Counted from the first letter of the stretch, positions 17,521 to 64,000 are shown. The stretch is 64,000 nt of DNA from Patescibacteria group bacterium (GCA_041671325.1 JBAZBR010000003.1:132506-196505); one strand, 5' to 3'. The notes: generated by a model not told the origin, from the letters alone. Made by a program: numbers and translations.

Positions 17521-17626
17521 CTGTCATTCTGAATCCCGCCATAAGGCGGGATGAAGAATCTTAATAAATATTAATCCCTATAAAGATCCTTCCTCCCTGC
17601 CCATAGGCAGGTCGTCAGGATGACAG
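17521..17626. repeat. Palindromic element (RPE/MITE-like), copy 1: termini CTGTCATTCTGA...TCAGGATGACAG, with internal hairpins ATCCCGCC-ataa-GGCGGGAT and CCTGCC-cata-GGCAGG
   Basis: Starts 6 nt after the gdh stop codon. Termini and the central GAAGAATCTTAATAA are shared with the copies at 45732, 50557 and 62704. Confidence 0.7.
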
Positions 17627-17710
17627 AAATAACGTCTTCAAAAAATTGACGCTTCTTTTGGATTAGTTTAGGCTAAGTTAAAATCGACCATTTAAAAAGG
17701 GGGAGAAGAA

Positions 17711-18268
17711 ATGTGGCGGCAAGTCTGGCGGCATGTTAATGTGCCAAACGCTTTTTCTTTTTTAAGAATGCTATTAGTAATCCCGATTTGGATTTTAAAC
17801 AGTCAGCAGACTTTTTTGGCCATTTTGTTCGCCTTTGTAGTTTATTTATTCGCTTTAGCCACTGACGCCCTTGACGGTTACACTGCCAGAAAAAGGAATT
17901 GCGTAACCGATGTGGGTAAACTACTGGATCCTTTGGCGGATAAGGTGTTGCACGTGGGGATCCTGCTCCAATTTCAAAGGTTTTACCCCCAGATCAATAT
18001 CCAATTTGCCCTAATCGTCATTTTGGCGGTAGTTCTGGCGGCTTTACCTGGTATGGTGGTTTTTTTCAAAGTAAAGAAGAAACTAGGCTCGAATATCTTT
18101 GGCCAAATCAAAATGTGTGTCGAAGGGGCTGCCGTTAGTTGCCTTTTTTTACGCCAGATGGATTGGGCTTGGTGGTTATTGTGGGGAGCCGTGTTAATGG
18201 CTGGTATCAGCATTCTGGGGCACTTGCTCATCAAGGACAAAAGTCCTGAAGCCAAAATCGCTAATTAA
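17711..18268 (+). CDS. pgsA: CDP-alcohol phosphatidyltransferase (PgsA-like)
   Basis: DALDGYTARKRNCVTDVGKLLDPLADKV (the D..DG..AR...G...D...D motif), with several TM helices. Confidence 0.75.
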   Translation: MWRQVWRHVNVPNAFSFLRMLLVIPIWILNSQQTFLAILFAFVVYLFALATDALDGYTARKRNCVTDVGKLLDPLADKVLHVGILLQFQRFYPQINIQFALIVILAVVLAALPGMVVFFKVKKKLGSNIFGQIKMCVEGAAVSCLFLRQMDWAWWLLWGAVLMAGISILGHLLIKDKSPEAKIAN

Positions 18269-18305
18269 AAACGACCGTTGGAAATTCCTGGCGGCCGTTT
18301 TTTTG
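18269..18305 (+). terminator. Terminator hairpin AAAACGACCG...CGGCCGTTTTTTT
   Basis: Stem plus a 7-T tract after pgsA. Confidence 0.55.
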
Positions 18306-18370
18306 TTGCAAAAGATTACTTTAGGCCTTAGAGTGAAAAGTGATAGAATGCGGATATATAATAGAAACTT

Positions 18371-21300
18371 ATGAAAAAGGGCGTAGAATTTAATATTCAT
18401 GAAAACTCACAAGAGGAAATTTTTTCCATTGAAGATAAGGCTCCAGAAAGAGAACTTAAAGGTTTTCGGAAATATTTTTTTGAAAGAGTAAGAACACCAG
18501 GCTTGGATCAAAATGTTACGTATACTGAGCAGGATTATGATATTGAGGAAACCAGAAGTGCGGATCAAATTACAATGGAGCGTGGTATCGCTGAAAAAAT
18601 AAGAGCGTCTGTTGATAATTTTTGTACAGAAAATGAGAGTGATTCGAAAGAATCACATGAGCAGACCAAAGAGAGGTGCCAAACAATCTTGGATGATCTC
18701 GTGGTTAATTATTGGAAAAGCCTTATGTCAACAGCTGGTAGGTCAGAATTTGAAGGATTGTTTAATAAAATGTTTGAAGCTGCCCCTAGTGAGGTAGAAA
18801 ATTATTTTAAGACTTTGGCTAGTGACGATAATGAAAGTAGTATTATTAAAACCAATCATTGGGTTGAAATCTTAAAAAATGTTTATTGGTCTGAGAAAGA
18901 AAAAGAGTGGCAGGATAATCACGGAGAGTCCGAACAGACCAATGATAAAGTTTATGAAAAAATTAAATTGTTGTTAAAAAATCTTGACGAAAAAAGCCAA
19001 GACAAATATTTTTTACATAATCGTTTGGCTAATATCTTAAAAGATATCGATACAGGCTTAAGTCCCATAGGAGATCGTCTACCTTTTGAAATCAATTTTG
19101 AGCATTACGCCATCTGGCTGGATAATGGCGGATTAGCAATTACCCCCATGATGGACGACGGTTCCATAGAAGATGATGTAAAGATGTACGAAGAATTTGA
19201 AGCATACTATTTACGTAAGTTATCAGAAATTTCTGACCCTGATGAAAAAAATGAATTTATTAGTCAGATGAACAATGATCTAAAAAAAGCAGAAGAATCA
19301 ATTAGAAGAAATTTTTATTTTGAAAAGATTGATCCTAAAACATTTGCTAATTCAATCGTGAGTAAAGGAAATTCAGAAGACAGCGTTACTAAGTTAGTTA
19401 ATTTTCGTTTTTTATATAATCGAGAAATTATCGGAGAGATTAGCAGGGATTTTCATATCGTTTTCGTTTATGAACCACCCGAGACGGTTTATCGTTTTTT
19501 AAATTTTGCTCAAAGCAAAACCCGCGAGGAATTACGTAGAGTCATGGATTTTTCTAGAATGTATAGTACCGACGGATTAAATTCTTTCTTATCAACCGAG
19601 CTTGATCCCGCTATGGGAGAAAGAATTTTGTCGATCGGAGAAAATCTACAGGATTCGCCGGAACTAGCAAATAAATTGTTTCGCGAGTATTCGATGGTTG
19701 CTCATCGTGCCACACAAACGGCTGGAGAAATCATCAAGTCATTTAGCTTGATATTTCCAGATAAACTAATAGAACAAAGCCAGGTAGTTGAGGCAATACT
19801 TATTAAGGCTAAAGATTTGCTTTTTCAGGTCAGCGAGGAAATCGGGACAAGTGATGACGAAGATAAGGAAGCGATTGTTAATCATGCAATTACTCAGTTA
19901 GAGAAACAGTTAGCAACTCAGAAAAAAGAAATTGGGGAGTTTGCGGAAATCGCTGGGCAGTTAAATGGGAAGTACCAGGAATTATTGAGTTCAGAGTTAG
20001 GCACAAAATTAGTAAATGATCTGGCAGAATTTCAAAAACACCTTCTGGATATGGAAGATACAGAGTTAAAACAACGTTTGCTGCAGGAACAAGAAATTTC
20101 AGGGAAGTTTTCAAGCGCCAGAATTGGTGAGATAATCGATCATTACCAAAGCGAGGTTGATTTTGAGCAAAGCAAGGAATTTCAAATCTTTAGAGGGCAA
20201 CTGTCTGTCGACCAACTTAGTGAATACATTGCTAAACAGAGGCAAAAGATTGAAACAACGTATAAACCCTTAATTCAAAAACTGGAAAAACTTTTGTCAT
20301 TTCAGGTTAATTTTGAAAAAAAGTTGGAACAAATTGTCATCGGCCACGAATCCGGAGTGCTGCCAAAAAATCTGTTAGAACGCTTGCCTGAAGAGGTCCA
20401 AGAAGTAAGACCGGAACGTCTGCCTGACAAAGAGCCGTTGTTTTTTCCTGTTGGCATTACCAAGGATCTGCCGGCAATGCAAGAGGTTTGGGCGGGTAAA
20501 AAAGAAACCGCCAAACCTATTGATATGTATGGCTATCTTTTTTGGCTCAACAATCAAGACCGGCCGGTTGAATTAGTCGTTTGCGACGAGATTCAAACCT
20601 CTAATTATCAAGCGCTGTACCCAGAATTATTAGCAGGCGGATCAGATGATCAGGCTCGCGAACAAGCGCGCCGTATTGGCAGGCAAGAAGTTGAACAATA
20701 TCAAAGAATTATTGAAACATTTGGTTTGTCAAACATAACCATTATTGATTATCACACCTTTAAGGAACGTAATGGTAATGCCATTGAAAAATATAAAGAG
20801 CTTTGTGAGCGGTTGGCGAAGAATGAAACTTGGAGAAACGCTTTTCTCTCAATGGTTCAGGAGTCGGTGTCTGGCGAAGAGCGGGAAAAATTTCTTGCTT
20901 ATGCCATTGAAGAGGTCAGCTGGATTTTGTCCAATGATGGCACCAAAGTTAGTCATGAAAATGAAACCCGCTATGATGCCATTGCCGCAATCATCAGGAA
21001 TATTGAAAATTACGGCCAGAAAAGACAGATAGATATTCTTGATCCAGAAAACGAAGCGCAATTTAATCAAGCTGCCTTAGCTGCCATAGCGGGGCTGCGT
21101 AATTTGATTAACGGGCGAAAGGATCGTGTCACGAAGGATTCTTCAGAGTACCGTTATTATCAAAGAATTGGTGAACATTTAGGAAAGATAAAACTTGGTC
21201 AGGTCGGCCAGCCTGATGATTTTGACGGGAAAACCATCGCGTTCAATTTCGCCATACCGTCGACCGGAGCGCAGAGTTTTGGCTGGCGCAGCCGCGGAGA

Positions 21301-21697
21301 GAAAGGATCCGAAAGCGTTCTAAAATTCAAGGAGCCGTATAGTACATATTTTTACCAGGGTGGGGCTGAACTTTTTCTTAACAGCGACCAGGTCGTAGCC
21401 GTTCCTGAAGGGCAGATAGCCGGAAAAATTTTAGCGCTTGATATCAATCAGCAGCAGGAATACGCGGAAAAAGTCGTGAAGCCAATCCTGGTCCACTATT
21501 TTAAAACTCTGGAAAATGCGCCAGCAGGATTTTTCAAGCTTATTGGCAAATCTCGAACAGAGCTTATAGCCGAATGCCAGTCCTCAGAAACCCTTATGGA
21601 TTTATTACAATTTGTTCAAAAAAATATTATTTCTCCCGTACAGCACAAGGAAACAAAACCAGTTGAATCTATTAGTTCGAAGCAGAAAGCGGCGTAA
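18371..21697 (+). CDS. Large acidic hypothetical protein (1108 aa), no recognisable domain
   Basis: Long intact ORF with E/D/K-rich coiled-coil-like segments. The 3' end overlaps the convergent TrmB paralog 3 by 26 nt. Confidence 0.7.
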   Translation: MKKGVEFNIHENSQEEIFSIEDKAPERELKGFRKYFFERVRTPGLDQNVTYTEQDYDIEETRSADQITMERGIAEKIRASVDNFCTENESDSKESHEQTKERCQTILDDLVVNYWKSLMSTAGRSEFEGLFNKMFEAAPSEVENYFKTLASDDNESSIIKTNHWVEILKNVYWSEKEKEWQDNHGESEQTNDKVYEKIKLLLKNLDEKSQDKYFLHNRLANILKDIDTGLSPIGDRLPFEINFEHYAIWLDNGGLAITPMMDDGSIEDDVKMYEEFEAYYLRKLSEISDPDEKNEFISQMNNDLKKAEESIRRNFYFEKIDPKTFANSIVSKGNSEDSVTKLVNFRFLYNREIIGEISRDFHIVFVYEPPETVYRFLNFAQSKTREELRRVMDFSRMYSTDGLNSFLSTELDPAMGERILSIGENLQDSPELANKLFREYSMVAHRATQTAGEIIKSFSLIFPDKLIEQSQVVEAILIKAKDLLFQVSEEIGTSDDEDKEAIVNHAITQLEKQLATQKKEIGEFAEIAGQLNGKYQELLSSELGTKLVNDLAEFQKHLLDMEDTELKQRLLQEQEISGKFSSARIGEIIDHYQSEVDFEQSKEFQIFRGQLSVDQLSEYIAKQRQKIETTYKPLIQKLEKLLSFQVNFEKKLEQIVIGHESGVLPKNLLERLPEEVQEVRPERLPDKEPLFFPVGITKDLPAMQEVWAGKKETAKPIDMYGYLFWLNNQDRPVELVVCDEIQTSNYQALYPELLAGGSDDQAREQARRIGRQEVEQYQRIIETFGLSNITIIDYHTFKERNGNAIEKYKELCERLAKNETWRNAFLSMVQESVSGEEREKFLAYAIEEVSWILSNDGTKVSHENETRYDAIAAIIRNIENYGQKRQIDILDPENEAQFNQAALAAIAGLRNLINGRKDRVTKDSSEYRYYQRIGEHLGKIKLGQVGQPDDFDGKTIAFNFAIPSTGAQSFGWRSRGEKGSESVLKFKEPYSTYFYQGGAELFLNSDQVVAVPEGQIAGKILALDINQQQEYAEKVVKPILVHYFKTLENAPAGFFKLIGKSRTELIAECQSSETLMDLLQFVQKNIISPVQHKETKPVESISSKQKAA

Positions 21698-22526
21698 TTT
21701 TTTTCATCTGTATTTTTAACCAGTCCGGCTGTTTGTCCTGGCAGTATTTGTTGCCTAACGCCCAACAAAAATTAAAGATTGAGGCCAGCATCGAATAAAT
21801 TTCGTTATTTTCCACGATAACACCAACGTGGTTTTTTTCGGAAAAGGTTACAAAGGACGCTTTGTTTTCGTAGATGTTTATTTCCGTGGCAAATGGGTAA
21901 AGCGTGTGATCGATAAAAATTATTTCCGTTAGTTCATTGGCTTGGTAGCCTTTCATGTAATCAAGTGCCTGGGCATTGTCAGGAATGATGACTTTTTCAA
22001 AAATCTGGAGTTTTTTTCTTTTAGGGGCGTAGTAATTCGTATTCCAGTCTTTAAGGTACTTTGCGTACCCAGCTACGTCAGAAAAAGTTAATAATTTTTT
22101 CTCCTTATTATCAATCAGCGTATCCTCAAGGACTTCTTTAATTCCATCCAAACCTTCAAAAAATCTAACACCCGGCTTGTTCATAGCCAATCGGTAAGCA
22201 GAAGCAATGCTATTAAAACTGGTTTTTAAAATGCGATCCTGCTGTTGGATTAATTTTTCCTGTTCTTCCAGGAGTATTTTAAACCGATCTGGAGGCTCCA
22301 CCATAAAGACTTTTTTGCCGCGTTCTTCGGTTTCCGTCACTAAGCCTTTGTGGGTTAAATCTTTCAGAATGTCATAGGTATTACCGCGCTTATAAGGCGT
22401 TTTAGGCAAGAGCTTGCCCATATTGACCTTGCCTAAAGAGAGCAGGGCTTCGTAAACCACGGCTTCTTTCTCTGAAAGGCCGATTTGGGTAAGAGTTTTA
22501 GCTAAAGAGGAGGCTATTTTTGGCAT
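21672..22526 (-). CDS. TrmB-family transcriptional regulator (paralog 3, 284 aa)
   Basis: IGLSEKEAVVYEALLSLGKVNMGKLLPKTPYKRGNTYDILKDLTHKGLV. Confidence 0.7.
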   Translation of the reverse strand: MPKIASSLAKTLTQIGLSEKEAVVYEALLSLGKVNMGKLLPKTPYKRGNTYDILKDLTHKGLVTETEERGKKVFMVEPPDRFKILLEEQEKLIQQQDRILKTSFNSIASAYRLAMNKPGVRFFEGLDGIKEVLEDTLIDNKEKKLLTFSDVAGYAKYLKDWNTNYYAPKRKKLQIFEKVIIPDNAQALDYMKGYQANELTEIIFIDHTLYPFATEINIYENKASFVTFSEKNHVGVIVENNEIYSMLASIFNFCWALGNKYCQDKQPDWLKIQMKKITPLSASN

Positions 22527-22747
22527 GTTTTTTAGAGTAAATTAAGCTTATTTGATGGGTTGAACCTGTGGATAACTTTATTTCAAACTAAAGATTAATT
22601 GACAAGAAAGCGTTATTACGTAATCAAGTTTAGCAAAAATAAAATATATTGTCAAATATATATGACATAATTATACATATAAATATTAATTATTTATGCT
22701 ATTAATATTAATAAATGACAAAATGATGTATTTTTTGGCACTATGAC

Positions 22748-22776
22748 TTGACAGTTTTTCAATATGGGTATATACT
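22748..22776 (+). promoter_or_regulatory. Consensus sigma70-type promoter TTGACA - 17 nt - TATACT
   Basis: Perfect -35 hexamer, 17-nt spacer, and a -10 of TATACT. Followed by ~500 nt with no ORF. Confidence 0.6.
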
Positions 22777-22789
22777 CCCTTGTTACGCT

Positions 22790-23290
22790 AGAAATGGTTA
22801 CCAAAGGAACTCCTGAACTTTGAAAAATGAATAGCGATAAATTCCACTCACCTTTAAAAAGCACTCGGGGTGAGCATGGAGAGAGCGCCTTCCCCCGCGT
22901 TTGCGGGGATGGCGAAAAGATAGCGAAAGCTATTTAGAGCTTGCTTATTAATTTATTATTCAAATGAATTTAAACCAATAAAAGGGACTCTCTCAAGTTT
23001 TTGAGCAGAGTCCCTTTTAATTTGGTAAATCTCCAGGGGTATAGAGAGGATCCGCCTTCGTCCCGCTTTACGCGGGACTTCGGCGGACAAAGAGAAGGAT
23101 TGAATAACCATAATAATCATTTACAGTCCTTATCTCTTCTCTAAACTCTTTTGAGAGAGAAAGAGTGAATAAATGTTCTTAAAAAACAAAATAAAAATTT
23201 GTTCTTAGTAATTGCTCTTTATTTGTTCTTTATATCAGCTGTTTGAAATTTTATTTCTGGAATTTTTGGAGAGAGAGATTGAAATAAGAT
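22790..23290 (+). ncRNA. Candidate non-coding RNA or long structured leader downstream of the consensus promoter; multiple perfect GC hairpins in AT-rich background
   Basis: Hairpins CCCCGC-gttt-GCGGGG, GGGACTCT...AGAGTCCC, GTCCCGC-tttac-GCGGGAC. No convincing ORF (the 103-aa and 76-aa ORFs are low-complexity). No match to the conserved motifs I checked by eye for tmRNA, RNase P or SRP RNA. Confidence 0.3.
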
Positions 23291-23450
23291 TTTGAACTTG
23301 ATTTGGCGAGTCGTAGTCGGGAATCCATAAGCTACGTTGAATGACGTGGCGCGGTTAACAAGATCACTAAACTCGCCCCAAGTGCGCGCCCTCATTACAT
23401 TTGTAGTGGGGGTTGCAGTTGGGAAACCAACAAAAAAAAGAAAAACAGCT

Positions 23451-23529
23451 CGAACCACAACGGTTCGGGTAGAAGATAAAACAAACCAAGTCCCATTTTG
23501 CTCAAAGCGAAGATGGGCGTGGAGGAACA
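23451..23529 (+). promoter_or_regulatory. Island module (a): palindrome CGAACC-acaac-GGTTCG + GGGTAGAAGATAAAAC + A-rich + AAGTCCCAT-hairpin-ATGGGCG + TGGAGGA RBS
   Basis: Conserved with modules at 24267, 26936 and 28547, with compensatory changes in both hairpins. Confidence 0.6.
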
Positions 23530-24159
23530 ATGAAAAATTTGAAATGGGTTCCTATTGTAATATGTAGGAGCCTAGAAATAATCTGTTGCATACCCTTATG
23601 GGTAGTGCAGCAGATAATAACCCGCCCCTTATTGGGGTGGAGAGTTCGTCGTACCGTCATTGACGGTAAGATTTCGTGTACGATGTCCAGAGGTTGTTGG
23701 GTTGAAAATCCAAACGGCCAGGACGTATATTCATTTGGTCCCCACGGAAACCCCGGGGACCAAATTCAACTCGTGTATCTTGGTGGATTGATTGGTTGGA
23801 GAATTTCTCCAACCAACCTCTCCACCTCCCCGAGGATGGAGCTGGAGGGAAGGAAGGGGTACCGTCGCGGCTACGAGGCCGCGATTACGGAATTACTGGG
23901 CAGCCTGACCGGCAGCTATTACCAGGAGGTAATAGGGCCGGGGGGATTTATAGAAGAGGGTCAGATGACCCTCAAGAATTTCTTGCAGGCCGGCTGGGCG
24001 TCGGCCTGCAATTACGACTATTCTTCCGAAAGCGCCTCTTTTAGAGGCGAGACGGAAGAATGCGTGGTAGAAGCCAACCACTATTCTGGTGGGTGGGATG
24101 ACGGGGTGATAAATATAGTCATCACCCATAAGGAGGCCATAAAGAAAGCCGCCGGCTAG
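23530..24159 (+). CDS. hypothetical protein (209 aa), GC-rich island ORF1
   Basis: ATG 5 nt after the GGAGGA of the conserved module. No known motif. Confidence 0.6.
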   Translation: MKNLKWVPIVICRSLEIICCIPLWVVQQIITRPLLGWRVRRTVIDGKISCTMSRGCWVENPNGQDVYSFGPHGNPGDQIQLVYLGGLIGWRISPTNLSTSPRMELEGRKGYRRGYEAAITELLGSLTGSYYQEVIGPGGFIEEGQMTLKNFLQAGWASACNYDYSSESASFRGETEECVVEANHYSGGWDDGVINIVITHKEAIKKAAG

Positions 24160-24178
24160 CACTGCCGTTCGGCTTCAT

Positions 24179-24226: not shown

Positions 24227-24266
24227 AGCTTGTGGAAATTTTTACAGGCTGAAACATGGGAAAATA

Positions 24267-24357
24267 GCCCGGACCACAACAGTTCGGGCAAAAGATAAAA
24301 AACACAAAAAAACAAAGTCCCACATTGCATGATGTAATAGTGGGCGTGGAGGATGAG
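24267..24357 (+). promoter_or_regulatory. Island module (b): GCCCG-GACCACAACAGTT-CGGGC + AAAAGATAAAAAAC... AAAGTCCCAC-hairpin-GTGGGCG + TGGAGGA
   Basis: Homologous to module (a). Stem changes CCCAT/ATGGG -> CCCAC/GTGGG are compensatory. Confidence 0.6.
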
Positions 24358-24705
24358 ATGAAGCTAAATACACTTTTGGAAAGTCTCTCGTTACTTGGGG
24401 AATTATTTCCCCAAGGCCAGGACATCGTTGTTCTGTTGGGGGAGGCGTCCACATCCCTGCAACGGGATGTGGATATAGTTGAAATCTCGGTAGTCTCTCG
24501 GGAAGACTTTGGTAAATTCCAAAGTCTTCCCGCAAAGGAGTTTGGCACTGAGCCGTACACAGGCTCGGACGACTGTCAAACATGGACCCACTGCTTCAAA
24601 CGCGGTGGGTTCGTCCTAGTAGTTACAGGGTTCCATGCCGGCTTCGAAACCGGCGCGGACGAACAGAAGTGGGAGGGGGGTAGAATATATTACCTACCCC
24701 TTTGA
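24358..24705 (+). CDS. hypothetical protein (115 aa), island ORF2
   Basis: Start placed at the ATG 5 nt after GGAGGA, by analogy with the other modules. Confidence 0.55.
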   Translation: MKLNTLLESLSLLGELFPQGQDIVVLLGEASTSLQRDVDIVEISVVSREDFGKFQSLPAKEFGTEPYTGSDDCQTWTHCFKRGGFVLVVTGFHAGFETGADEQKWEGGRIYYLPL

Positions 24706-26929: not shown

Positions 26930-26935
26930 AAAGAA

Positions 26936-27025
26936 AACCGCCCGCGCCATTACGGTTCGGGTAAAAGATACAAAAACAAACAAAGTCCCATCCCGCATCA
27001 GGCGAGGGTGGGTGAGGAGGAAGAA
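26936..27025 (+). promoter_or_regulatory. Island module (c): AACCG-CCCGCGCCATTA-CGGTT + CGGGTAAAAGATACAAAAAC ... AAAGTCCCATCC-hairpin-GGGTGGG + TGAGGAGGA
   Basis: Same architecture as modules (a) and (b). Confidence 0.55.
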
Positions 27026-27685
27026 ATGAGAACCGAAAAAGGTTGGCCGTCGCAGGCCGACAGCGGCTCAGAAAAGGGCTGCTTAGTTTTTAAGGAAGGG
27101 GGCGAAACGACGACAACTTACTTCGATAGCTTCGAAGAGGCGGTCGCTGTTTTCCTGGGTCTCTACAACGAGTACCCAGGAATTATTTGGCGGGGGGATT
27201 GTTGGAAACCTGATCTTAACCACCGCTGCAGCGTGCCCCACAAGCCGTGGGGCAGCAACGGCGGTAGGTGGTACAATCCCGAGTATGGCCGAGAAGTAAT
27301 CCTTTATTACAAGGACGGCCGCCGTGAGGGATGGCAGAGTCCGTGTTGCGACAAGACCGGCCGTTTCTATCGCGGCGCGTTTGTACGTCAGACCATGCCG
27401 CATATCGTACCAGGATATGGGTACATGCAGCGACGCAAACCACGCCGTGACGACCTTCTCCCTGCTGGGACGGCACGGAGTGATTGGGCATACAATAACC
27501 CGGATCCCGTGAACATTGGCGGGGTGATCGTGGATCAGCGGGAGATCAACCGCATCCGGAAATTGACCGAAGCGCTCCCAACCCACATCACCACGTGGGA
27601 CGCTTCGGGGAGCTACCTTTATTTGGAGGAAATTGTTTGGGGTGATGAACCCCAGCTAATGTTTGAGAAGGCGGTTAGACAGTAA
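27026..27685 (+). CDS. hypothetical protein (219 aa), island ORF5
   Basis: Start at the ATG after the module's GGAGGA. W/Y/R/G-rich with several Cys. Confidence 0.55.
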   Translation: MRTEKGWPSQADSGSEKGCLVFKEGGETTTTYFDSFEEAVAVFLGLYNEYPGIIWRGDCWKPDLNHRCSVPHKPWGSNGGRWYNPEYGREVILYYKDGRREGWQSPCCDKTGRFYRGAFVRQTMPHIVPGYGYMQRRKPRRDDLLPAGTARSDWAYNNPDPVNIGGVIVDQREINRIRKLTEALPTHITTWDASGSYLYLEEIVWGDEPQLMFEKAVRQ

Positions 27686-27688
27686 TTC

Positions 27689-28508: not shown

Positions 28509-28546
28509 AGCTCTTAAATCGAGGGTTGAAAGTGGAGAAAAAATAG

Positions 28547-28600
28547 TCCAAACCACTACGGTTTGGGCAAAAATAAAAAAAGTTATTCCAGGAGGAAAAG
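28547..28600 (+). promoter_or_regulatory. Island module (e): CCAAACC-actac-GGTTTGG + GCAAAAATAAAAAAAG + GGAGGA
   Basis: The palindrome covaries with module (a): GAACC/GGTTC here becomes AAACC/GGTTT. Confidence 0.55.
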
Positions 28601-31797: not shown

Positions 31798-31824
31798 AGC
31801 AGAAAAGATACTTATAAATTGTTA

Positions 31825-31885
31825 ACCCCCTCTCCCTCTGGGAGAGGGTACGCGAAGCGGGGGTGAGGGTTACTCGGAAATTAAT
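31825..31885. repeat. REP-like element E2 (inverted orientation): CCCTCTCC-ctctgg-GAGAGGG + GC segment + GGGTGAGGGTTACTCGGAAATTAAT
   Basis: Reverse-complement architecture of E1. The tail matches E4. Confidence 0.6.
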
Positions 31886-33002: not shown

Positions 33003-33114
33003 GTCAACCCCGCACCACTTTCCAAAATAAATCTGAGAATAGTTGTAGAAATTTCTTGCGATAAATATCCATGTTTTTAATAAATATTTTTATGGAAAGT
33101 GGTGCGGGGTTGAC
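33003..33114. promoter_or_regulatory. Perfect 21-bp inverted repeat pair (GTCAACCCCGCACCACTTTCC / GGAAAGTGGTGCGGGGTTGAC) enclosing a 70-bp AT-rich segment, upstream of the surface-protein locus; candidate invertible promoter or operator
   Basis: Arms at 33003-33023 and 33094-33114 are exact reverse complements. Confidence 0.5.
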
Positions 33115-42325: not shown

Positions 42326-42644
42326 TGTTAAAATTTTTATGGCAAAAAACCTTTTTTATCAATTGGAAGGAGAAGCGTATTTAAAACTTTTTAAAATTTT
42401 AATTCTTATAAGTTAAAATTCCTGTGACACTGGCGCTGGAACTTATAATGCGCCAACGCTTTCAACCGCGCCAAAGATTTTTACCTCGGCTTCAGACAAT
42501 TATGTCTGTACAAAACAAGATTGCCACGCTCACCCGCGATAGTGGGTTCGCTCGCAATGACCCTAAAATTGACGTGAGTTTAGGAATGTGCTATAATTAT
42601 CTTAGAAAATAAAAATAAATATTAACTTTTAACCCAAATTTCTT

Positions 42645-45727: not shown

Positions 45728-45731
45728 CCAA

Positions 45732-45848
45732 GTCATCCTGAGTCTCGCTTTCAAGCGAGCGAAGGATCTTAATAAGCTTATTTATTAAATAAATATTAGG
45801 GGATTCTTCCCCCTCGACTCGCTTCGCTCACTCGGGGTCAGAATGACG
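45732..45848. repeat. Palindromic element (RPE/MITE-like), copy 2: termini GTCATCCTGA...TCAGAATGAC, internal CTCGCT-ttca-AGCGAG, central GAAGGATCTTAATAA
   Basis: Begins 5 nt after the dockerin-gene stop. Family similarity to 17521, 50557 and 62704. Confidence 0.7.
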
Positions 45849-46995: not shown

Positions 46996-47040
46996 ATTTT
47001 TTATCCTCTAAATAGAATAGAAGCAGAGATTGTAAAACTA

Positions 47041-47150
47041 ACCCCCTCGCCCTCTGGGAGAGGGGTAAGGGGTGAGGGTTGCTCGGAAATATTAATATTA
47101 GGTTAATCAATCAACCTCACCCTCAGTCCCTCTCCTATATAGGAGAGGGA
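47041..47150. repeat. REP-like elements E4 and E5 in inverted orientation, forming a ~110-bp composite palindrome
   Basis: CCCTCGCCCTCTGGGAGAGGGG...GGGTGAGGGTTGCTCGGAAAT // AACCTCACCCTCAGTCCCTCTCCTATATAGGAGAGGG. Confidence 0.6.
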
Positions 47151-50491: not shown

Positions 50492-50556
50492 GGTTTTTTG
50501 GAATTGACTAAAGACCATTAATAAAGGGCAGTTTTTTATAATTATTATTTTTATTT

Positions 50557-50678
50557 GTCATTCCGACTGAGCCCGATTCATAGAAGGGCGAGTGGAGGAA
50601 TCTCTATTGAACAAACGAGATCCCTCGGCTCCCGCCCGCTGTGCCTGTGGCGCTGGCTGGCGGGTCGCTCGGGATGAC
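50557..50678. repeat. Palindromic element (RPE/MITE-like), copy 3: termini GTCATTCCGA...TCGGGATGAC
   Basis: GC-rich internal hairpins in an AT-rich intergenic region, downstream of the 582-aa gene. Confidence 0.6.
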
Positions 50679-51046
50679 AAAAGGCGGAAGCAATGCTCTT
50701 AAAACTGATACTAAAAAAAGTTGACTTTTTCCGCTTTTTGCGCTATAATTAGTATGTAAAATAAAAAAATTAAAACAAAAACTATGTTTTGTCAGCGCGC
50801 GCCACAAAAAAGTATTAAGCTCTCCGTAATTTGGCTAGCGATTTTTGTTATCTTAGCCGGGATCCTGGCTGCCACTTACGGACCGAAAAGCATCCCCGAT
50901 AAAGTCAGTTCTGCCACTGATTCCGTAATTGTCCCGTAAAAAACAATCACCAATCCACGAAATCACAAATGCTCGGCGGAGCATTTTTATAAAAGGTAAA
51001 TTTTGGCTAGAATTAAAGACTATTGATTTTAAAAAAATAAGCATTT

Positions 51047-57023: not shown

Positions 57024-57755
57024 ATGGCTTTACAAGTTTCCACTATAATCGATCTAACTAATGCCGGGGTGACTGGTTATTTGGCTTTTCGGCTGTATTC
57101 AGCCTTTGTGCAAAACCCCAAAAGCCAAACCCTTAAGAACTTTTTTTACCTGTATAGCATGTTGGCCATTGCCTACATTTTTCTTTTCGTGCCGAGGATT
57201 ATTGCCAGCGACCAAACAAGGTTTTTAGGTTATAGTTTTGCGGTTGGGAACTGCTTTTTTTTGATTGCCGCGGCTTTTTATGGCAAGATAATCCTTTTTT
57301 TCACCAAACCACAGTGGGCCAAAAAGTTTTTTGTAATTTTTTTAATATTAACCGGCATTGGTTTAGTCAGGGCTTTTTATGAGCCGGCAAAACCGTTTGT
57401 TGATTCAACTACGGGCATTACCAATTGGAATGTTGATCTGGCTTTAGGAATTTATTATGGCATCATGATTTTGGCCATATTAATTCCTGGGATAATTTTC
57501 TTTTTAACAAGGGGGATTCAGGCCAAAACCAACCACGTGGTCAGGATACGTTCAAATACCATTGCCATTGGCACAATATTATTGATATTTACGGTAATAA
57601 CTTTTTATTTAGCCAACACTGAGACTTTGGCCATACTTGGCGATTTATTTTCGGTAGCAGCTTTGCTTACCGTATTTTTAGGGGTAATATATCATCGTCC
57701 CAAACCAATACCCCAGATTATGCCAAACAATTCATTAAATAATCCAAAAGAATAA
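57024..57755 (+). CDS. hypothetical polytopic membrane protein (243 aa, about 7 TM)
   Basis: Seven hydrophobic segments; lies between the kinase and the response regulator. Confidence 0.5.
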   Translation: MALQVSTIIDLTNAGVTGYLAFRLYSAFVQNPKSQTLKNFFYLYSMLAIAYIFLFVPRIIASDQTRFLGYSFAVGNCFFLIAAAFYGKIILFFTKPQWAKKFFVIFLILTGIGLVRAFYEPAKPFVDSTTGITNWNVDLALGIYYGIMILAILIPGIIFFLTRGIQAKTNHVVRIRSNTIAIGTILLIFTVITFYLANTETLAILGDLFSVAALLTVFLGVIYHRPKPIPQIMPNNSLNNPKE

Positions 57756-57759
57756 TTTT

Positions 57760-58581
57760 ATGCCAAGCCGACATATCGTCATAATCGAAGATGAAGACAT
57801 ATTAAGGGAAGTTTTGGTTAAGAAATTTATCCACGAAGGCTTTCGCGTTGATTCGGCAACTAATGGCGAAGATGGCTTGGCCCTAATCCAGTCAGCCAGG
57901 CCAGACGTAGTTTTACTGGATATCTTAATGCCAAAAATGAATGGTTATGAAGTATTAAAAAATTTACAGGCCACGGGCGATAAATTGCCGCCAATTATCA
58001 TAATTTCAAATTCCGGGCAGCCAATTGAAGTGGATAAAGCCGTAAGTTTGGGCGCCATAGATTTTATAATTAAAGCCCAAATAACCCCTGAAGAAGTTTA
58101 CTTAAAGGTTAATAAAATTTTTGAGCCAAAAATTCAAAAACCAAAGACCCAAGTTCAAAACGATGAAAGCCAAGAAGCAGACACGAAAATTTCAAAAAAA
58201 AGCAATGGAGAGTATAGGATTTTATTGGTTGAGGATGACCAATTTTTAAGGGATTTACTGGCAGGCAAATTAAAAAGAGAGGGCTTTGATGTGACTGCTT
58301 GTGTCGACGGCCAAGAAGGTTTGAGGACAATCCAGAAACAAAAGCCAGATTTAGTCTTATTGGATATTATCTTGCCAGGGTTGGATGGTTTTAATGTTTT
58401 GCAGCAAGTTCGTTTTTCCGCTGATAAGCAAGTATCAGAAGTGCCAATAGTCCTTTTATCAAACCTCGGTCAAGATTCTGACGTGGCTAAAGGCAAAAAA
58501 TTAGGGGCCAATGACTATTTAATCAAGGCAAATTTAACGATTGACGATATCATTAAGAAAATCAGGAAATTTTTGAAATAA
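57760..58581 (+). CDS. Response regulator with two tandem receiver (REC) domains and no output domain
   Basis: IVIIEDEDILREVL...VVLLDILMPKMNGYEVL and ILLVEDDQFLRDLL...LVLLDIILPGLDGFNVL, each with Asp acceptor-site context. Confidence 0.8.
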   Translation: MPSRHIVIIEDEDILREVLVKKFIHEGFRVDSATNGEDGLALIQSARPDVVLLDILMPKMNGYEVLKNLQATGDKLPPIIIISNSGQPIEVDKAVSLGAIDFIIKAQITPEEVYLKVNKIFEPKIQKPKTQVQNDESQEADTKISKKSNGEYRILLVEDDQFLRDLLAGKLKREGFDVTACVDGQEGLRTIQKQKPDLVLLDIILPGLDGFNVLQQVRFSADKQVSEVPIVLLSNLGQDSDVAKGKKLGANDYLIKANLTIDDIIKKIRKFLK

Positions 58582-58623
58582 AAAAGACCTAAGCCATAAT
58601 CAATCCAGGCTGCGGTTTATAAT

Positions 58624-59904
58624 TTAAAGATAGCTTAGCGGATTTCTTTTCCCGCCATTTTGCATTACTTCAAAATGCAGGTGTGTACCAGTTGACCGGC
58701 CGGTTGAACCGACCATGCCGATTGTTTGACCGCGTTTTACCGATTGGCCAGCCCTGACGAATATTTTACTGGCATGGCCATACAAGGTTTCCCGACCGGC
58801 GCCATGGTTAATTATAATATGGAAGCCATAGCCATAGCGGGCATAAATTACGCTTTCTACCACCCCGCTGTCGGCGGCGTAAATTGGGCTTGAATAATCG
58901 CCATCTATATCCACGCCAGTGTGCCTATATTTATAATATTGGTTAATTCTTCGGCTAATAGTGGGCCATTGCAAACGGGCGCCTGGCACGACTCGGGCGG
59001 GTGCCGGGATATTGAAAATAGCGAATTTGCGGGTTGCAGAAGTGCTGGGTTGGATTGGTTGGACTGCAGGTTCTATGCTGCCGCCAGGAATGATTAATTC
59101 TTCCCCAGCATTTAAGGCTTCACCGCTGGCTAAGCGATTAAAGGCTAAGATTTTTTCTGAATCCGCCTTATATTTTGTAGCGATTTTTTTAATTGTTTCA
59201 CCGGATTTAATGGTATGGATAACGCCGTCGATTGGCAAAATTGTTAATTTTTGGCCGGGTTTAATATAATCAGCCTCGCTTAAATTATTGGCCCATAAAA
59301 TTGTTTCCGTGCTAATGCTGAATTGCTGGGCGATTGAACTTATTGTGTCACCGCCTTCAACAATGTAATACCTGACTTCTTCAGAACTATCTTCGCTTGT
59401 ACCGCCACTGCCTAAAGCCAGCTGCTGCTCGGGGTTATTTTCTGAAGTTGAATCAGCTACCGGCCTGGCAGCAATATTCAAAGTTGGGGTCAAGGCCAAT
59501 TTTTGTTCCTTGTTAATTTGGGTTGCAGGGCCTTCGATTATTTCCAAATCCTCAGAAGGATCGCCTGGGAAAATATTGGCAAAAATGCTTTTTCGGCCGA
59601 AGGTTGCTGGATCAGAACTTTGGGCCTGGACATTGTTAAAAGCGATAAGCATAGCCACGATTGCGACCAAGGCTGTGACCGTGTTTCGGTGGAAAATAAA
59701 ATAGGCCCAGCGGTTTTTTGTCGGCGCGATTATTTTATTGAGCTTACTTTTGAAAAGCCGGTAGAGGCGGTAAAGCGGCCGTAATATGATTAGCCAAATC
59801 AAACGTCCCAACCATTTAAATGGCGTCAATAGCAATAGGATTATCTTTCCCAAACCCATTAATATTGAACCAAGAAAATTCAATATTTTTATGAGTGAGC
59901 TCAA
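58624..59904 (-). CDS. LysM-domain M23-family metallopeptidase (cell-wall hydrolase)
   Basis: Two LysM repeats (YYIVEGGDTISSIAQQF..., HTIKSGETIKKIATKY...) and an M23 motif HTGVDI...GHASK...GSTGRSTGTHLHFEV. N-terminal TM. Confidence 0.85.
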   Translation of the reverse strand: MSSLIKILNFLGSILMGLGKIILLLLTPFKWLGRLIWLIILRPLYRLYRLFKSKLNKIIAPTKNRWAYFIFHRNTVTALVAIVAMLIAFNNVQAQSSDPATFGRKSIFANIFPGDPSEDLEIIEGPATQINKEQKLALTPTLNIAARPVADSTSENNPEQQLALGSGGTSEDSSEEVRYYIVEGGDTISSIAQQFSISTETILWANNLSEADYIKPGQKLTILPIDGVIHTIKSGETIKKIATKYKADSEKILAFNRLASGEALNAGEELIIPGGSIEPAVQPIQPSTSATRKFAIFNIPAPARVVPGARLQWPTISRRINQYYKYRHTGVDIDGDYSSPIYAADSGVVESVIYARYGYGFHIIINHGAGRETLYGHASKIFVRAGQSVKRGQTIGMVGSTGRSTGTHLHFEVMQNGGKRNPLSYL

Positions 59905-60052
59905 GAAAATTTTTATGACTCGATCGCTAATAAGTTAAGCTTTAATCATAAATAGCCACCACGTCTCATATTATAAAAAATCCCTAGGGAATAATAGAGA
60001 TTGATGAATTTCCAAACTAACATGCAGGCGTTTTTATGTCAAGCCACATTTT

Positions 60053-60081
60053 GGTTTTTTGGCTAATCTAAGGCAAAAAAA
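60053..60081 (+). promoter_or_regulatory. Conserved 28-nt motif GGTTTTT(T)GGCTAATCTAAGGCAAAAAAA, copy 1 (upstream of the radical SAM gene), next to a TTGACA promoter element
   Basis: Near-identical copy at 61923-61951, upstream of leuS. Confidence 0.5.
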
Positions 60082-60206
60082 TTGAGGTATTCATTGACAG
60101 AATAATTGGAATCTATTAGTGTATCATCGGTTCCCATGAGAGCCGCGGTGGCACTCAGTTTGAAGTTCGAAACAAGTTCATTGATAAAAGATTAAGGAGT
60201 GGAAAG

Positions 60207-61202
60207 GTGTTTTTAAAATTGCCCGAACTACGCGTGACAGTTAACTCGCGATGTGAGCGCGCGTGTTTCTTCTGTCGTTACTCAGGAGAGGGGGTCGAAA
60301 CGCCAGCGATGGCAGAGTTGGATATTAGGACAGTACTTACCGTTGTTAAGATATGTGAGAGTTTTGGTGTTTCCTATGTGAAGCTTACTGGCGGTGATCC
60401 TGCGCTTTGGCAACCACTTGTGGATTGTGTAAGAGTAATCAAAGAACAGACAGCATGCCGTGTTGAGGTCATTTCTCGCCATCCTAAGATCGCGGCATAT
60501 GCACATCTTCTCGCTCAAGCAGGGGTGGATATGCTGAATATAAGCATTGATACTCTCGATCCGACTTTGCACCGCAAGATCACGGGCGTAAACGACTTGG
60601 ATGGCATCTTAGATGCACTCAAGGCATGTGTGAATACCGGCGTATCTTGTAAAGTTAATATGGTCGTACTCGCAGGCATCAATGATCACGAGATTGATGC
60701 TCTTATCTCGTTCAGTGATTCTCTTGGAGTTAAGGTGGTTAAGCTTCTTGATCTCATGACAGACATTGAGGACGGAACGGAAACTTTCGTACAACGGATG
60801 CATCTACTCGGATTCGGTTCGTTGCGTGAGGTTTATTTACCGTTGCAGAGCATTGCAAGTAGGTTGAAAAAGCGAGCGGTCGGTGAACGTAGGTTTCTAC
60901 AATTAGGAGGCCTCGGTAATCCTATGCTCAGTTTCACGATGCCATCTGGAATGGATGTGGTGATCAAAGACCACCACGCCGGTGCGTGGTACGGTTCTAT
61001 CTGTAAGGGATGTAAGTACTATCCGTGCAGTTCGGCTCTTATGGCACTTCGTCTTACAGCCGATATGCGTTTGCAGTACTGTCTATTTCGGGAAGATCTC
61101 TGTATCGACATAAAATTAATTAAGGCTAAAAGCCTTTGCAATATTATCGCCGATGTGCTTCAGGTGTACGACCAAGCCATTTTTCATGCCTGTCCCGAAT
61201 AA
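60207..61202 (+). CDS. Radical SAM protein, MoaA (GTP 3',8-cyclase)-like
   Basis: CERACFFC (CxxxCxxC) in LRVTVNSRCERACFFCRY, resembling the MoaA N-terminus. GC-rich relative to neighbours. Confidence 0.65.
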   Translation: MFLKLPELRVTVNSRCERACFFCRYSGEGVETPAMAELDIRTVLTVVKICESFGVSYVKLTGGDPALWQPLVDCVRVIKEQTACRVEVISRHPKIAAYAHLLAQAGVDMLNISIDTLDPTLHRKITGVNDLDGILDALKACVNTGVSCKVNMVVLAGINDHEIDALISFSDSLGVKVVKLLDLMTDIEDGTETFVQRMHLLGFGSLREVYLPLQSIASRLKKRAVGERRFLQLGGLGNPMLSFTMPSGMDVVIKDHHAGAWYGSICKGCKYYPCSSALMALRLTADMRLQYCLFREDLCIDIKLIKAKSLCNIIADVLQVYDQAIFHACPE

Positions 61203-61254
61203 TCAGTGGTTAATCACCACTTAGGTATTTAAGAAGAGAGGAACACTTAAAGCC

Positions 61255-61755
61255 TTATTCATTTATGAGTGAGTGAGGCTTTTTCAAATGTTCTATAGCT
61301 TTTTGCAGGATTTTTAACATTGATCCAATCATGCACATAGAATCAATTTGCGCTAAATCTTCAATATCCCACCAGATATATCGTGAATGTTCTTCCGAAA
61401 GTTGCACGTGATTGTTAGTTAGTTCAGTTAAAAAATTGAATTGCCGCGCTTTTTTTCCATCAGGTGATATGGCATCGAAAGACCCGATGTATTCATGTAT
61501 TTTTGCTACTTTTAAATTTGTTTCTTCAAATAATTCTCGTTCCACGCCCCGGAGAATATTCTCGTCGGCTTTAAGGTTACCGCCGGGTATTTCTATATAG
61601 CCTGGGAGAAAATCGTCGCGTGAAGATCGTTCAACAAGCAAAATTTTTTTATGAAAAATTGGTATTGCTCCAACGAGTATCCTTTCAATACCATCGGATT
61701 CAGCTTGTTGTTTTAATTTTTCTGCGAATTGTTGGAGTTCAAATCTTTGTTCCAT
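61255..61755 (-). CDS. NUDIX hydrolase
   Basis: Nudix box GGNLKADENILRGVERELFEETNL. Confidence 0.85.
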   Translation of the reverse strand: MEQRFELQQFAEKLKQQAESDGIERILVGAIPIFHKKILLVERSSRDDFLPGYIEIPGGNLKADENILRGVERELFEETNLKVAKIHEYIGSFDAISPDGKKARQFNFLTELTNNHVQLSEEHSRYIWWDIEDLAQIDSMCMIGSMLKILQKAIEHLKKPHSLINE

Positions 61756-61922
61756 AAGTAAGTATGTGTTGTAAAAGTTTTATTTAGTAGTCAAACTCGG
61801 GTTGGTAATACGAATCTGTTGGTCGTGGTTTTGGAATAAACACCTTATTGTATTCAAATATAACAAATGCTTATCATTTTGTCAGCCTGCCGTAAGCATG
61901 TGTTGTTAGGGCTAATTTTTCG

Positions 61923-61951
61923 GTTTTTGGCTAATCTAAGGCAAAAAAAAT
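61923..61951 (+). promoter_or_regulatory. Conserved 28-nt motif copy 2, followed by promoter TTGAAA - 17 nt - TAAATT upstream of leuS
   Basis: GGTTTTTGGCTAATCTAAGGCAAAAAAAA. Confidence 0.5.
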
Positions 61952-61990
61952 CTTGAAAAAAGCCTGGATATTTGGTAAATTGTATTGACA

Positions 61991-64000
61991 ATGGGTAGCA
62001 ACAAATACCAGCCGGAAAAGCTGGAAAATAAATGGCAGCAGGCTTGGTTGAAAGCGAAAATTTTCCAAGCCAAAGATTTTCCGAAAATGAAAAAGCATTA
62101 CGTTTTGGATATGTTCCCATATCCTTCAGCCGAGGGTTTGCATGTCGGCCATCCAGAAGGCTATACGGCTTCAGATATTTTTGCCCGATATTTGAAGATG
62201 AATGGCTTTGAAGTCCTGCACCCCATGGGTTGGGATGCTTTTGGCTTGCCCGCGGAAAATTACGCTATCAGAACCGGCACCCAGCCCGAAGCCACCACGC
62301 AGAAAAATATTAAGAATTTCAAGCGCCAAATCCAGTCCTTAGGCTTTGCCTATGATTGGTCCAGGGAAATAAACACCACCGATCCTGAATATTACAAGTG
62401 GACCCAGTGGATATTCTTGAAATTATTTGAAGCAGGTTTGGCTTATGAAGCTTTTGCGCCCATCAACTGGTGCCCGAAAGATAAGACTGGCTTAGCTAAT
62501 GAGGAAGTGGTTAACGGTAAGTGTGAAAGGTGCGGGACAGAAGTGGTGAAAAAAAATATCCGCCAATGGCTGGTAAAAATTACGGACAGGAAATATATAG
62601 ATCGCTTATTATCGGGTTTAGAAAAATTGGATTGGCCAGAATCCATAAAGTCACTCCAGAAAAATTGGATTGGTAAAAGTGAAGGAGCGACTGTGAGTTT
62701 TTCTGTCATTGCGAGGAGCGAAGCGACGACCTGCCCGCCGAACTCGCTATGGCGAGGCAGGCGGGAACAATCCCGCATTAATAATGAGATTGCCACGCCC
62801 CTTGGTAAGCTCGGGGCTCGCAATGACACAATAGAAGTCTTTACCACTCGGCCGGATACGCTTTTTGGCGCCACTTATTTGGTTTTATCGCCCGAACATC
62901 CATTAGTAGATGAAATTACCGCTCCTATGCAGAAGAAAGCGGTTGAGGATTATAAACTTCAAGCTAGTAAAAAATCAGACTTGGATAGGACAGACTTGGC
63001 TAAAGAAAAGACTGGGGTTTTTACCGGGGCTTATGCTATTAATCCGGTCAATAACAAAAAAATCCCAATCTGGATTGCGGATTATGTTTTAGCATCTTAT
63101 GGTACAGGCGCCATTATGGCTGTGCCCGCGCATGATGAACGGGATTTTGAGTTCGCCAAGAAATATAAATTACCGATTGTTAAAGTCATTGAACCACCCA
63201 AGGTGATGCCTAAACGGACTCTGGAATCGTTTGCTTCTTCAGGGGCGGCCGGTCATCTGCAAGGCGATATTGAAAGTGATTGTTGGATTGGTGGCGGAGT
63301 AATGGTCAATTCCGGGAAATACGATGGAATGGACTCTTTAAAATTTAGCAAAGTAATTACTGATTGGTTGGAAAAAAATGATAAAGGCCACCAGGCAGTC
63401 CAATACAAGCTTCGTGACTGGGTTTTTTCCAGGCAAAGGTATTGGGGCGAGCCCATCCCCATTATCCATTGCGAAAAATGCAAAACAGACGTGGAACTGA
63501 ATGCTTATGAAATACACTTTTATAATCAAGAATCTTGGGACATGATCATGTCTGGAGAAAAAACCGTTGAAACCCGGGCTTTAAACCCTGATGAAAAATT
63601 AAAATATTTTGGCAATATAAAAAAAGGCAATTTTTTAAGAGCGGTCAATAAACAGACAAAACAAGTCCAATTTTTAGAAGTTTTAGAAGCAAAAGCATTT
63701 GCTAGTTTGGAAGAACTTTTCAAACGTCCTATTTTAATCAAGCAGATTTATCCTAAAATCAGCATTAAAACCTTAAAAGATTTAAAACAAGCCTTTAGTT
63801 TTACGCCAGAATATGTGGACCGTATCCAAAGACATGGTTTGATTGCCTGGAAAATAAAGAAAATCCAGCCTGGCTTGATTGCTGTACCGGAAAAAGATTT
63901 GCCCTTGGAATTGCCAAGGGTAAAAGCATACCAACCCACTGGTACGGGCGAATCCCCTTTGGCTTCAATTGAAAAATGGGTGAAAACAAAATGCCCCAAG
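61991..64000 (+). CDS. leuS: Leucine--tRNA ligase, 5' portion; continues beyond the window end
   Basis: [15 protein letters not shown]...[25 protein letters not shown] (HIGH-type motif), ...[22 protein letters not shown], ...CEKCKTDVE. Not in the ORF track because there is no stop codon inside the window. Confidence 0.85.
62704..62828. repeat. Palindromic element (RPE/MITE-like), copy 4, inserted in-frame within leuS: termini TGTCATTGCGAG...CTCGCAATGACA
   Basis: Perfect 12-bp terminal inverted repeats. Internal GC hairpins CCTGCCCGCC.../...GCAGGCGGG. No stop codon in the leuS frame across it. Adds ~35-40 residues between ...GATVSF and [10 protein letters not shown], relative to other LeuS proteins. 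Confidence 0.65.

Follow-up and report, generated by a model that had tools for sequence, protein, structure and literature searches.

A 64,000-nt stretch of DNA from a Patescibacteria group bacterium (GCA_041671325.1, JBAZBR010000003.1:132506-196505), called the window below, holds five short palindromic elements, one of them in frame inside leuS, the gene for leucyl-tRNA synthetase. These are very probably inverted dimers, plus one singleton, of CGTC/TGTC-tagged repetitive extragenic palindromic (REP) hairpins, which would place them in one superfamily with the Rickettsia palindromic elements (RPE) RPE-4 and RPE-6 and with the Neisseria repeat dRS3. A preliminary description of the window, made from the sequence alone, had proposed an 'RPE-like' palindromic family with an in-frame leuS copy. 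This is supported, and more literally than proposed, by the CGTC-REP anatomy and the ATGAC end. It was also thought that such a family would be notable if found. A dispersed palindromic family is indeed there, but it is not novel: it is published and pan-bacterial, and in-frame copies in tRNA-synthetase and uvr genes are already known. What is new here is Patescibacteria as a host phylum, a variant hairpin architecture, and a site in LeuS that is common to orthologues.

The conserved unit is a single hairpin monomer. Every arm of the four larger elements (E1 to E4) is itself a hairpin. It opens with an unpaired (C/T)GTC head, continues with a stem of AT and a variable, pyrimidine-rich triplet, and is closed by the complement of that triplet, another AT and a short tail. 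Inside the stem, a purine-rich GA/GA(A) internal loop surrounds a variable GC hairpin. The outer stem measures 5 bp, the nested hairpin 7-36 nt. The pattern GTC-AT-NNN ... N'N'N'-AT is found in 8/8 intact monomers of the window, and its positions are invariant or nearly so in alignment A1, which consists of 90 copies, all from other genomes and viral contigs. Heads in the window are TGTC six times, and CGTC, AGTC and GGTC once each. The triplets are TCT, CCT, TCC, CCC and TGC. The tails are CTT, CTC or CCC; external copies of the TGC type have CCA or CTC, and the consensus for the superfamily is CCA.

The window contains four dimers and one singleton. E1, E2 and E3 are heterodimers, made up of TCT+CCT, CCT+TCT and TCC+CCC respectively. 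A spacer of 20-35 nt separates the inverted units. E1 (17521-17626) has a TGTC-headed TCT monomer at 17522-17562 on the plus strand and a CCT monomer at 17583-17625 on the minus strand, around an AT-rich spacer. E2 (about 45731-45848) has the same monomer types in reversed order, CCT (+) and TCT (-), and contains an inverted match to the E1 spacer (repeat I21). E3 (about 50556-50679) joins a TCC monomer (+) to a CCC monomer (-), both part of an element with long GC-rich inner hairpins. E4 (62704-62828) is the inverted dimer inside leuS, with triplet type TGC. The fifth copy, E5 (42520-42561), is a single monomer on the minus strand with triplet TGC, of the form GTCATTGCGAG-hairpin-CGTGGCAATCTT.

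The sequence bears out the first four of these as earlier described, coordinates and termini included; the single-hairpin copy E5 had been overlooked. The elements had also been called GC-rich, which is true of E3 (0.61) and E4 (0.59) only, with E1 and E2 at 0.45 against 0.43 for the whole window. The AT-rich centre GAAG(A/G)ATCTTAATAA, ascribed to all four, is present in E1 and E2 only.

The inverted termini are real as sequences, but reading them as the terminal inverted repeats of a transposon does not hold. In E1 to E3 the triplet is perfectly complementary within each arm (in E1, ATTCT..AGAAT and ATCCT..AGGAT), whereas pairs across the arms show wobble or mismatch. Because the arms are self-complementary and the cross-arm pairs flawed, what had looked like 'terminal inverted repeats' must be two monomer heads that face each other in inverted orientation. 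A count of intra-arm pairs on A1 was discarded as circular, since A1 had been chosen for that very feature, and 55 unfiltered hetero-type matches from the fetched loci were used instead. In these the tail fits its own head in 29 + 25 cases and the other arm in 2 + 4, with about 0.8 per arm expected by chance. There are six triplet types, all with a matching inner triplet. The tails of paired monomers also covary (columns 40-42 with 79-81), which means that the dimer is able to form one long stem as well. No target-site duplication was found: in 238 external dimers, direct repeats of 2-5 nt are at chance level only. The base before GTCAT in these 238 dimers is C in 61% and T in 36%.

The statistical support comes from shuffle controls and from an external model. 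Against an expectation of 2.8, the window has 12 occurrences of the motif GTCATYNNGA, a number that 0/100 shuffles reach; 9/12 of these occurrences lie inside the elements. All four dimers fold far better than dinucleotide-shuffled sequences on either strand, with z from -3.8 to -8.2. E1 for example folds at -48.1 kcal/mol (z -8.2), and E3 has a z of -5.9. A covariance model built on A1, with the window scanned with filters off, finds E4 at 47.3 bits (E 2.6e-11), E1 at 21.8 (E 4e-4), E3 at 18.1 and E2 at 14.5. Beyond these four it has no match in the window below an E of about 3, and as a model of dimers it misses the monomer E5. Rfam recognizes only three tRNAs in the window at gathering score, and nothing on the elements at an E of 5 or less.

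The family is widespread. The exact ends of the leuS type, GTCATTGCGAG-N56-86-CTCGCAATGAC, are found at at least 120 loci in IMG/VR viral contigs, and again at at least 120 loci in GTDB contigs (one genome per species). The GTDB matches listed include Bradyrhizobium, sphingomonads, Rhodospirillales, a Rickettsiales metagenome-assembled genome, Gammaproteobacteria, Bacteroidota, Planctomycetota, Desulfobacterota, Chloroflexota, Ignavibacteriota and several Patescibacteria. BLAST against plasmids gives matches on 11 large alphaproteobacterial and Halomonas replicons, none of them annotated, and no Rickettsia plasmid is among the matches. A literature search with the literal terminal sequences turned up unrelated primers only. 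The 43-aa insert peptide yields no word-sharing candidates, and an exhaustive HMMER search gives three weak matches; the query is too short, and therefore unsuited to counting host proteins.

CGTC-tagged REPs were surveyed in 2013 (Di Nocera, De Gregorio & Rocco 2013, BMC Genomics 14:522, PMC3733652). This survey describes an unpaired CGTC head, often TGTC or CCTC, with A-T/T-A at stem positions 1-2 and a 3-nt tail. The repeats are mainly inverted dimers, both homo- and heterodimers, with spacers of 20-100 bp; they lie near the 3' ends of open reading frames (ORFs) and are without an associated transposase. In-frame intragenic copies are reported too, notably in uvrA/B/C, dnaE and tRNA-synthetase genes. 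The peptides tabulated for such copies are VIPAKAGI...DSRFRGND, VIPGLDPGI...DGRVKPGHD and VIAGLDPAI.

The repeats of the window match that description in the (C/T)GTC head, the AT stem start, the inverted homo- and heterodimers, the spacers and the shortness of the tail. They also match in standing right after ORFs, in having no linked transposase and in having in-frame copies. The peptides encoded by in-frame copies in uvr and tRNA-synthetase genes begin with VI(A/P) and end with ..ND or ..MT, as here, and the window copies share the GTC-AT(T/C) start and the ATGAC end with the tabulated coding copies of PMC3733652. It is this shared anatomy, placement and set of peptide ends that assigns the window elements to the superfamily. 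The survey equates CGTC-1 of R. conorii with RPE-6, CGTC-4 with RPE-4, and Neisseria dRS3 with CGTC-1. It also mentions atypical loops in the CGTC-1 repeats of Bradyrhizobium, and expects further uncatalogued variants. It covers five phyla, Patescibacteria not being one, and does not describe a shared leuS site.

A second source is the R. japonica genome paper (PMC3767692), which gives ATGAC as characteristic of the types RPE-4, -6 and -7. RPE-4 and RPE-6 thus resemble the window repeats in their end motif, and also in lying in frame in housekeeping genes, among them those for IleRS and PheRS-β. RPE inserts are found at the same locus in orthologues and encode solvent-exposed segments, and that paper leaves undecided whether this reflects hot spots or a common origin. 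The leuS copy looks similar, its exposure being predicted from a structural model. Stem and loop sequences (VIPAKAGI and VIPWLDHGI types) and the host phylum differ from those of the window repeats, and RPE-1 to RPE-3 are longer and unrelated. The link to the RPEs is one by description, through the equivalence given in PMC3733652 and the ATGAC motif in PMC3767692.

Other small repeats make for useful comparisons. Mosaic arrays like those of Neisseria are not seen in the window. The Neisseria unit dRS3 is 20 bp long, flanks larger mosaic repeats, and is a target for phages and insertion sequences. It resembles the window repeats in its CGTC-1 class, its ATTCCC...GGGAAT inverted cores and its dispersal between genes. 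GTAG REPs and REPINs are likewise short hairpin units that form inverted dimers, stand after genes and cause no target duplication. They are thought to be moved as single-stranded hairpins. Here, however, the head is CGTC/TGTC and not GTAG, and no RAYT gene flanked by the repeats was found in the fetched loci (a Y1_Tnp gene at locus L245 is unflanked). Correia, ERIC and QMITE elements share with the window repeats that they are small, structured and non-autonomous, and sometimes translated in host genes (PMC10969869).

All copies but the one in leuS are placed downstream of a stop codon and ahead of the transcription unit that comes next. As had been described, three copies follow stop codons closely. 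E1 stands 5 nt 3' of the stop of gdh (ELFV_dehydrog), E2 begins 4 nt after the stop of a dockerin/Big-domain gene, with the next ATG only 9 nt past its end, and E3 is 65 nt 3' of the stop of a gene for a 582-aa cohesin-like protein. E5 follows a 2908-aa ORF at about 195 nt. A promoter-like TTGACT-17-TATAAT is found at 50721-50749, 43 nt downstream of E3, and a TTGACG-17-TATAAT at 42569-42597, 8 nt after E5. At other Patescibacteria loci the repeats are likewise found after lepA and further genes. In-frame copies elsewhere are found in guaA (L157) and uvrA (L164), in the same VIA...RND frame.

At L164, the uvrA gene itself holds an in-frame dimer of the TGC type. Upstream of it is a stop-free frame that starts with ..HSEQSEES...FRMT, and which looks like a translated REP dimer of the CCT type.

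It had been suggested that the copies after genes double as terminators, and for this the canonical feature is absent. No T-run follows E1, E2, E3 or E5, nor indeed any copy, and the terminator scan reports none of these four on the plus strand. With no T-run, and with E2 ending so close to the next ATG, canonical intrinsic termination is not supported. It is plausible, by analogy, that transcripts of the upstream genes end in stem-loops formed by the intergenic copies. In other bacteria REPs are mostly 3' of ORFs and thought to act as RNA (PMC3733652).

Placement alone would also fit a different story, in which the elements never moved. They would then be terminators or 3' mRNA stabilisers that evolved locally and look alike through convergence, which agrees with the four copies between a stop codon and the next unit, with the strong promoter-like sites after E3 and E5, and with the presumed RNA role of REPs after ORFs elsewhere. 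Yet there is no T-run and the scan is silent on the gene strand, E2 leaves no room for a promoter in the 9 nt before the start codon, and identical 11-nt heads across phyla plus a copy in a coding region are beyond convergence. Given also that the covariance model search already shows shared ancestry with an external family, this explanation is very improbable. [quoted passage not shown] A length of 105-125 bp, inverted termini of 10-12 bp, dispersed copies and a stable fold would all suit a MITE. True MITEs however have terminal inverted repeats, target-site duplications and an insertion-sequence origin, none of which is seen for the window repeats. Besides the lack of duplications in the 238 copies, the conserved unit is the hairpin of a single arm and not a pair of ends, heterodimers and a singleton monomer exist, and there is no linked transposase in 2.1 Mb of fetched loci or in the 2013 survey (PMC3733652). 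Finally, chance palindromes with no family relationship have nothing going for them except the shortness of the shared motifs. The shuffle controls, the E-values of the external covariance model and the covariation across hundreds of copies reduce their probability to almost nothing.

Two inverted hairpin units around a spacer can fold either as two hairpins or as one long cruciform-like stem. As CGTC REPs, the repeats would be non-autonomous, and they may be spread and/or homogenised by an activity acting in trans, or by gene conversion among copies. The intergenic copies would be transcribed as stable stem-loops at the 3' end of the upstream mRNA, and the leuS copy may persist because the loop it occupies tolerates almost any insert.

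Some candidates for a mobile origin were looked at and dropped. A Y1_Tnp gene (IS200/RAYT-like) has a conserved syntenic position in two related contigs, L245 (5529-6068) and L323 (696-1274), between comM-like and histidine-kinase genes. As a mobiliser it is rejected: it is unflanked by repeats, missing from the syntenic slot of the window, and without a homologue in the rest of the 2.1 Mb. Integron attC sites have R''/R' cores of the form RYYYAAC/GTTRRRY; these are absent from the repeats, so this candidate was dropped too. Neither the window nor the fetched loci showed an insertion sequence that shares the repeat ends.

The leuS gene occupies 61991-64000 (+) and is partial, as it runs past the end of the window. 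Its product is 100% identical to protein P0001 (998 aa). The frame is open across E4, as had been noted. The stretch GTC...GAC at 62705-62827 is 123 nt, or 41 codons, counted from codon position 1. The earlier estimate was some 35-40 extra residues; E4 comprises 41 codons, and 39 residues stand where T. thermophilus LeuRS has 4 (238-241). The extra segment coincides with the element. Sequence to the left and right of the insert aligns with solved LeuRS structures, and the alignment to 1h3n/2v0c splits around it.

The insert lies just ahead of the TTRPDT motif, at the start of the editing domain, connective peptide 1 (CP1). In an AlphaFold2 model of P0001 (mean predicted local distance difference test score, pLDDT, 84.9), residues 225-258 have a pLDDT <50 and lie between β-strands 210-221 and 261-266. 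Because of this low score between two strands, the insert is read as a disordered excursion at the tip of a β-hairpin. The E4 segment is thus predicted to form a disordered surface loop where the LeuS editing domain's first β-hairpin turns.

The 5' arm of E4 has a nested GC hairpin module of 36 nt at 62730-62765, between GCGACGA and AACAATC. It has a 35/36 match in the leuS repeat of L247 (3167-3202), where it is in the other arm and inverted. The LeuS cores of the two hosts are about 73% identical. The module is absent from L244, despite that locus having the same element variant as L247, and the exact 36 nt have 0 matches in JGI metagenome contigs.

It is unlikely that ribosomes bypass the leuS insert or that it is excised, since the frame is open and in phase in 10/10 repeat-bearing LeuS, with inserts of about 84-130 nt. 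Further along, at 63100-63900 of the window (P0001 residues ~387-409 and 476-600), there is a second low-confidence segment, and past the editing domain an extra structured module of ~120 aa that is not covered by the Pfam synthetase domains.

For comparison, 120 LeuS relatives were collected, of which 111 are scorable at the loop, and DNA was compared for seven syntenic orthologous loci plus the window. The source genome is near Kerfeldbacteria, and the closest other LeuS is 63% identical. The ancestral loop consists of 10 residues (x-I-x-G-x-x-x-x-I-x), as in spirochaetes. The VIA...RND repeat occupies the loop in 10/111 scored relatives, and remnants of it are found in P0063, P0071 and P0072. 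Other patescibacterial relatives have the native 10 residues, other repeat-derived peptides, or whole domains. In P0033, a complete REP dimer abuts an inserted domain of ~200 aa.

The preliminary description would have been contradicted by relatives carrying the peptide segment with no nucleotide element. All seven orthologues checked have the element at the DNA level, making 8/8 leuS genes with the window included, and orthologues that lack it have an ordinary 10-residue loop. The terminal codons are constant or nearly so. VIA is encoded as GTC ATT GCG in 8/8, and RND as CGC AAT GAC in 7/8. In 32 conserved flanking codons, meanwhile, there are on average 2.7-3.0 different codons, so synonymous sites are scrambled there. 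The 3' junction, RND-x-I-K/E-VF, is the same in 8/8, and the 5' junction is nearly so. L244 and L247 share a variant that has the opposite orientation to that of the other five and is one codon shorter at its 5' junction. The leuS pair of L001 and L002 has identical stems, with diverged loops and inner hairpins.

The state of the loop also varies among relatives. Neighbour-joining trees with 100 bootstraps give 7-9 changes of repeat state for 10 taxa, almost like random labels, on weakly resolved trees. Even close relatives differ: P0003 has the repeat and P0015 the native loop, at 85% identity between the two. Taken together, the orientations, codons and distribution of the leuS repeats point to at least two events, or an inversion. 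They also suggest that the DNA itself is still being exchanged or is under constraint, and do not point to passive decay of one relic.

The same loop holds other things as well. Inserts of 146-212 aa are present there in many patescibacterial orthologues. The proteins flagged for large inserts or extra domains are P0002, P0005, P0010, P0013, P0024, P0025, P0040, P0044, P0052-P0054 and P0073. Pfam matches on the large-insert proteins are Ser_hydrolase/abhydrolase, NUDIX, Ham1 and ASCH, and some orthologues carry extra domains elsewhere. At L323 (6709-6792) the loop contains a palindrome, GAACTTAGAAC...GTTCTAAGTTC (ELRTEN...LRSKF), that is unrelated to REP, and at L322 (3392-3499) it contains runs of AAATCCT/AAAATTC heptamers with GC hairpins.

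A single ancient insertion, inherited vertically, is an alternative history of the leuS copy. Its nucleotides would then have been conserved by a cis-acting role in leuS expression, for example as an mRNA structure by which the editing domain is translated at a set pace, or as a site for factor binding. The shared junctions speak for this, as do terminal codons that stay invariant (RND in 7/8) beside saturated synonymous sites, and the L001/L002 pair in which stems stayed the same while the rest diverged. The same termini are however kept in hundreds of places that have nothing to do with leuS, so that no role in this gene is needed to account for their conservation. Orientation differs between groups of orthologues, the repeat state is scattered among close relatives with the ancestral loop (P0015 versus P0003), and unrelated palindromes, whole domains and remnants are found in the same loop. 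On balance this history is improbable. Somewhat less so, if still unlikely, is a broader idea in which the patescibacterial LeuS loop is a 'landing pad', where CGTC REP dimers, palindromes of other kinds and whole enzyme domains (NUDIX, hydrolase, Ham1) have settled repeatedly. A REP residing there would perhaps be actively maintained, and might seed the accretion of domains. Its upkeep may come from gene conversion or re-insertion from other copies, or from selection on the structure of leuS mRNA or DNA.

Some of the data count against an interpretation as mobile CGTC REPs with a recurrent leuS site. The four CGTC families catalogued in the 2013 survey have simple stems of 8-9 bp with loops of 4-5 nt, while in the window repeats a 5-bp outer stem encloses a GA/GA loop with a GC hairpin nested in it. 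A mobilising enzyme did not turn up, and no transposase is linked to the repeats in the 2.1 Mb of fetched loci, so mobility is inferred. The inner hairpins of the four window copies are very unlike each other, and thus do not suggest that the repeats multiplied recently in this genome. Because the eight leuS genes have almost the same junctions, a single old insertion is possible for most of them, and the neighbour-joining trees that scatter the repeat state are themselves weakly resolved.

The assignment to CGTC REPs extends their superfamily, including some RPEs, to the Candidate Phyla Radiation, and to an ultra-small genome. Exact 11-nt heads turn out to be common to Bradyrhizobium, Patescibacteria and many viral contigs. 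For annotation, the repeats account for many spurious 'VIASEAKQS.../...LRFARND' ORFs, and for odd inserts in proteins predicted from metagenomes.

What remains of most interest is that the LeuS loop serves as a recurrent insertion site while its REP stems stay constant at synonymous sites. It is a natural experiment: depending on which of several close relatives is looked at, one surface loop of an essential enzyme has its native 10 residues, a REP dimer facing one way or the other, a different palindrome, or a whole domain. The constancy of the REP stems in leuS at synonymous sites bears on the Rickettsia question of re-insertion at hot spots versus an ancient relic. The loop pattern also bears on what propagates CGTC REPs, for which to our knowledge no transposase is known. 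Should the loop indeed be colonised repeatedly, genomes of about 1 Mb would be the smallest gene sets in which to seek the propagating enzyme.

The window has further repeats that are separate from the REP elements. Near its start, a tRNA-Arg(cct) gene (3212-3286) abuts a large serine recombinase gene at 3236-4720 (-), with Resolvase, Recombinase and Zn_ribbon_recom domains. Two long, near-perfect inverted repeats are found here, one of 79 nt (3281-3359/4782-4860) and one of 95 nt (4854-4948/6437-6531). The region 3212-6531 looks like an integrated element or an invertible segment. Shortly after it, an 87-nt repeat with 78% identity (6842-6928 and 7543-7629) contains the palindrome TTCCACGTGGAA, and stands ahead of tRNA-Ala genes at 7177 and 7824.

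A direct repeat of 43-110 nt with small hairpins has four copies, at 23442-23534, 24261-24361, 26934-27029 and 28540-28582. Every copy immediately precedes an ORF that Pfam does not recognize, and a set of paralogous genes may have the repeat in common as a 5' leader or promoter module. A palindrome at 33003-33114 has 28-nt arms that are 93% complementary; it is some 500 nt upstream of the 2908-aa ORF, and has only sub-threshold matches in Rfam. Another small repeat family is represented by a 26-nt hairpin, TAACCCCCTC(T/G)CCCTCTGGGAGAGGG, found at 31823-31848 and 47039-47064 with 96% identity.

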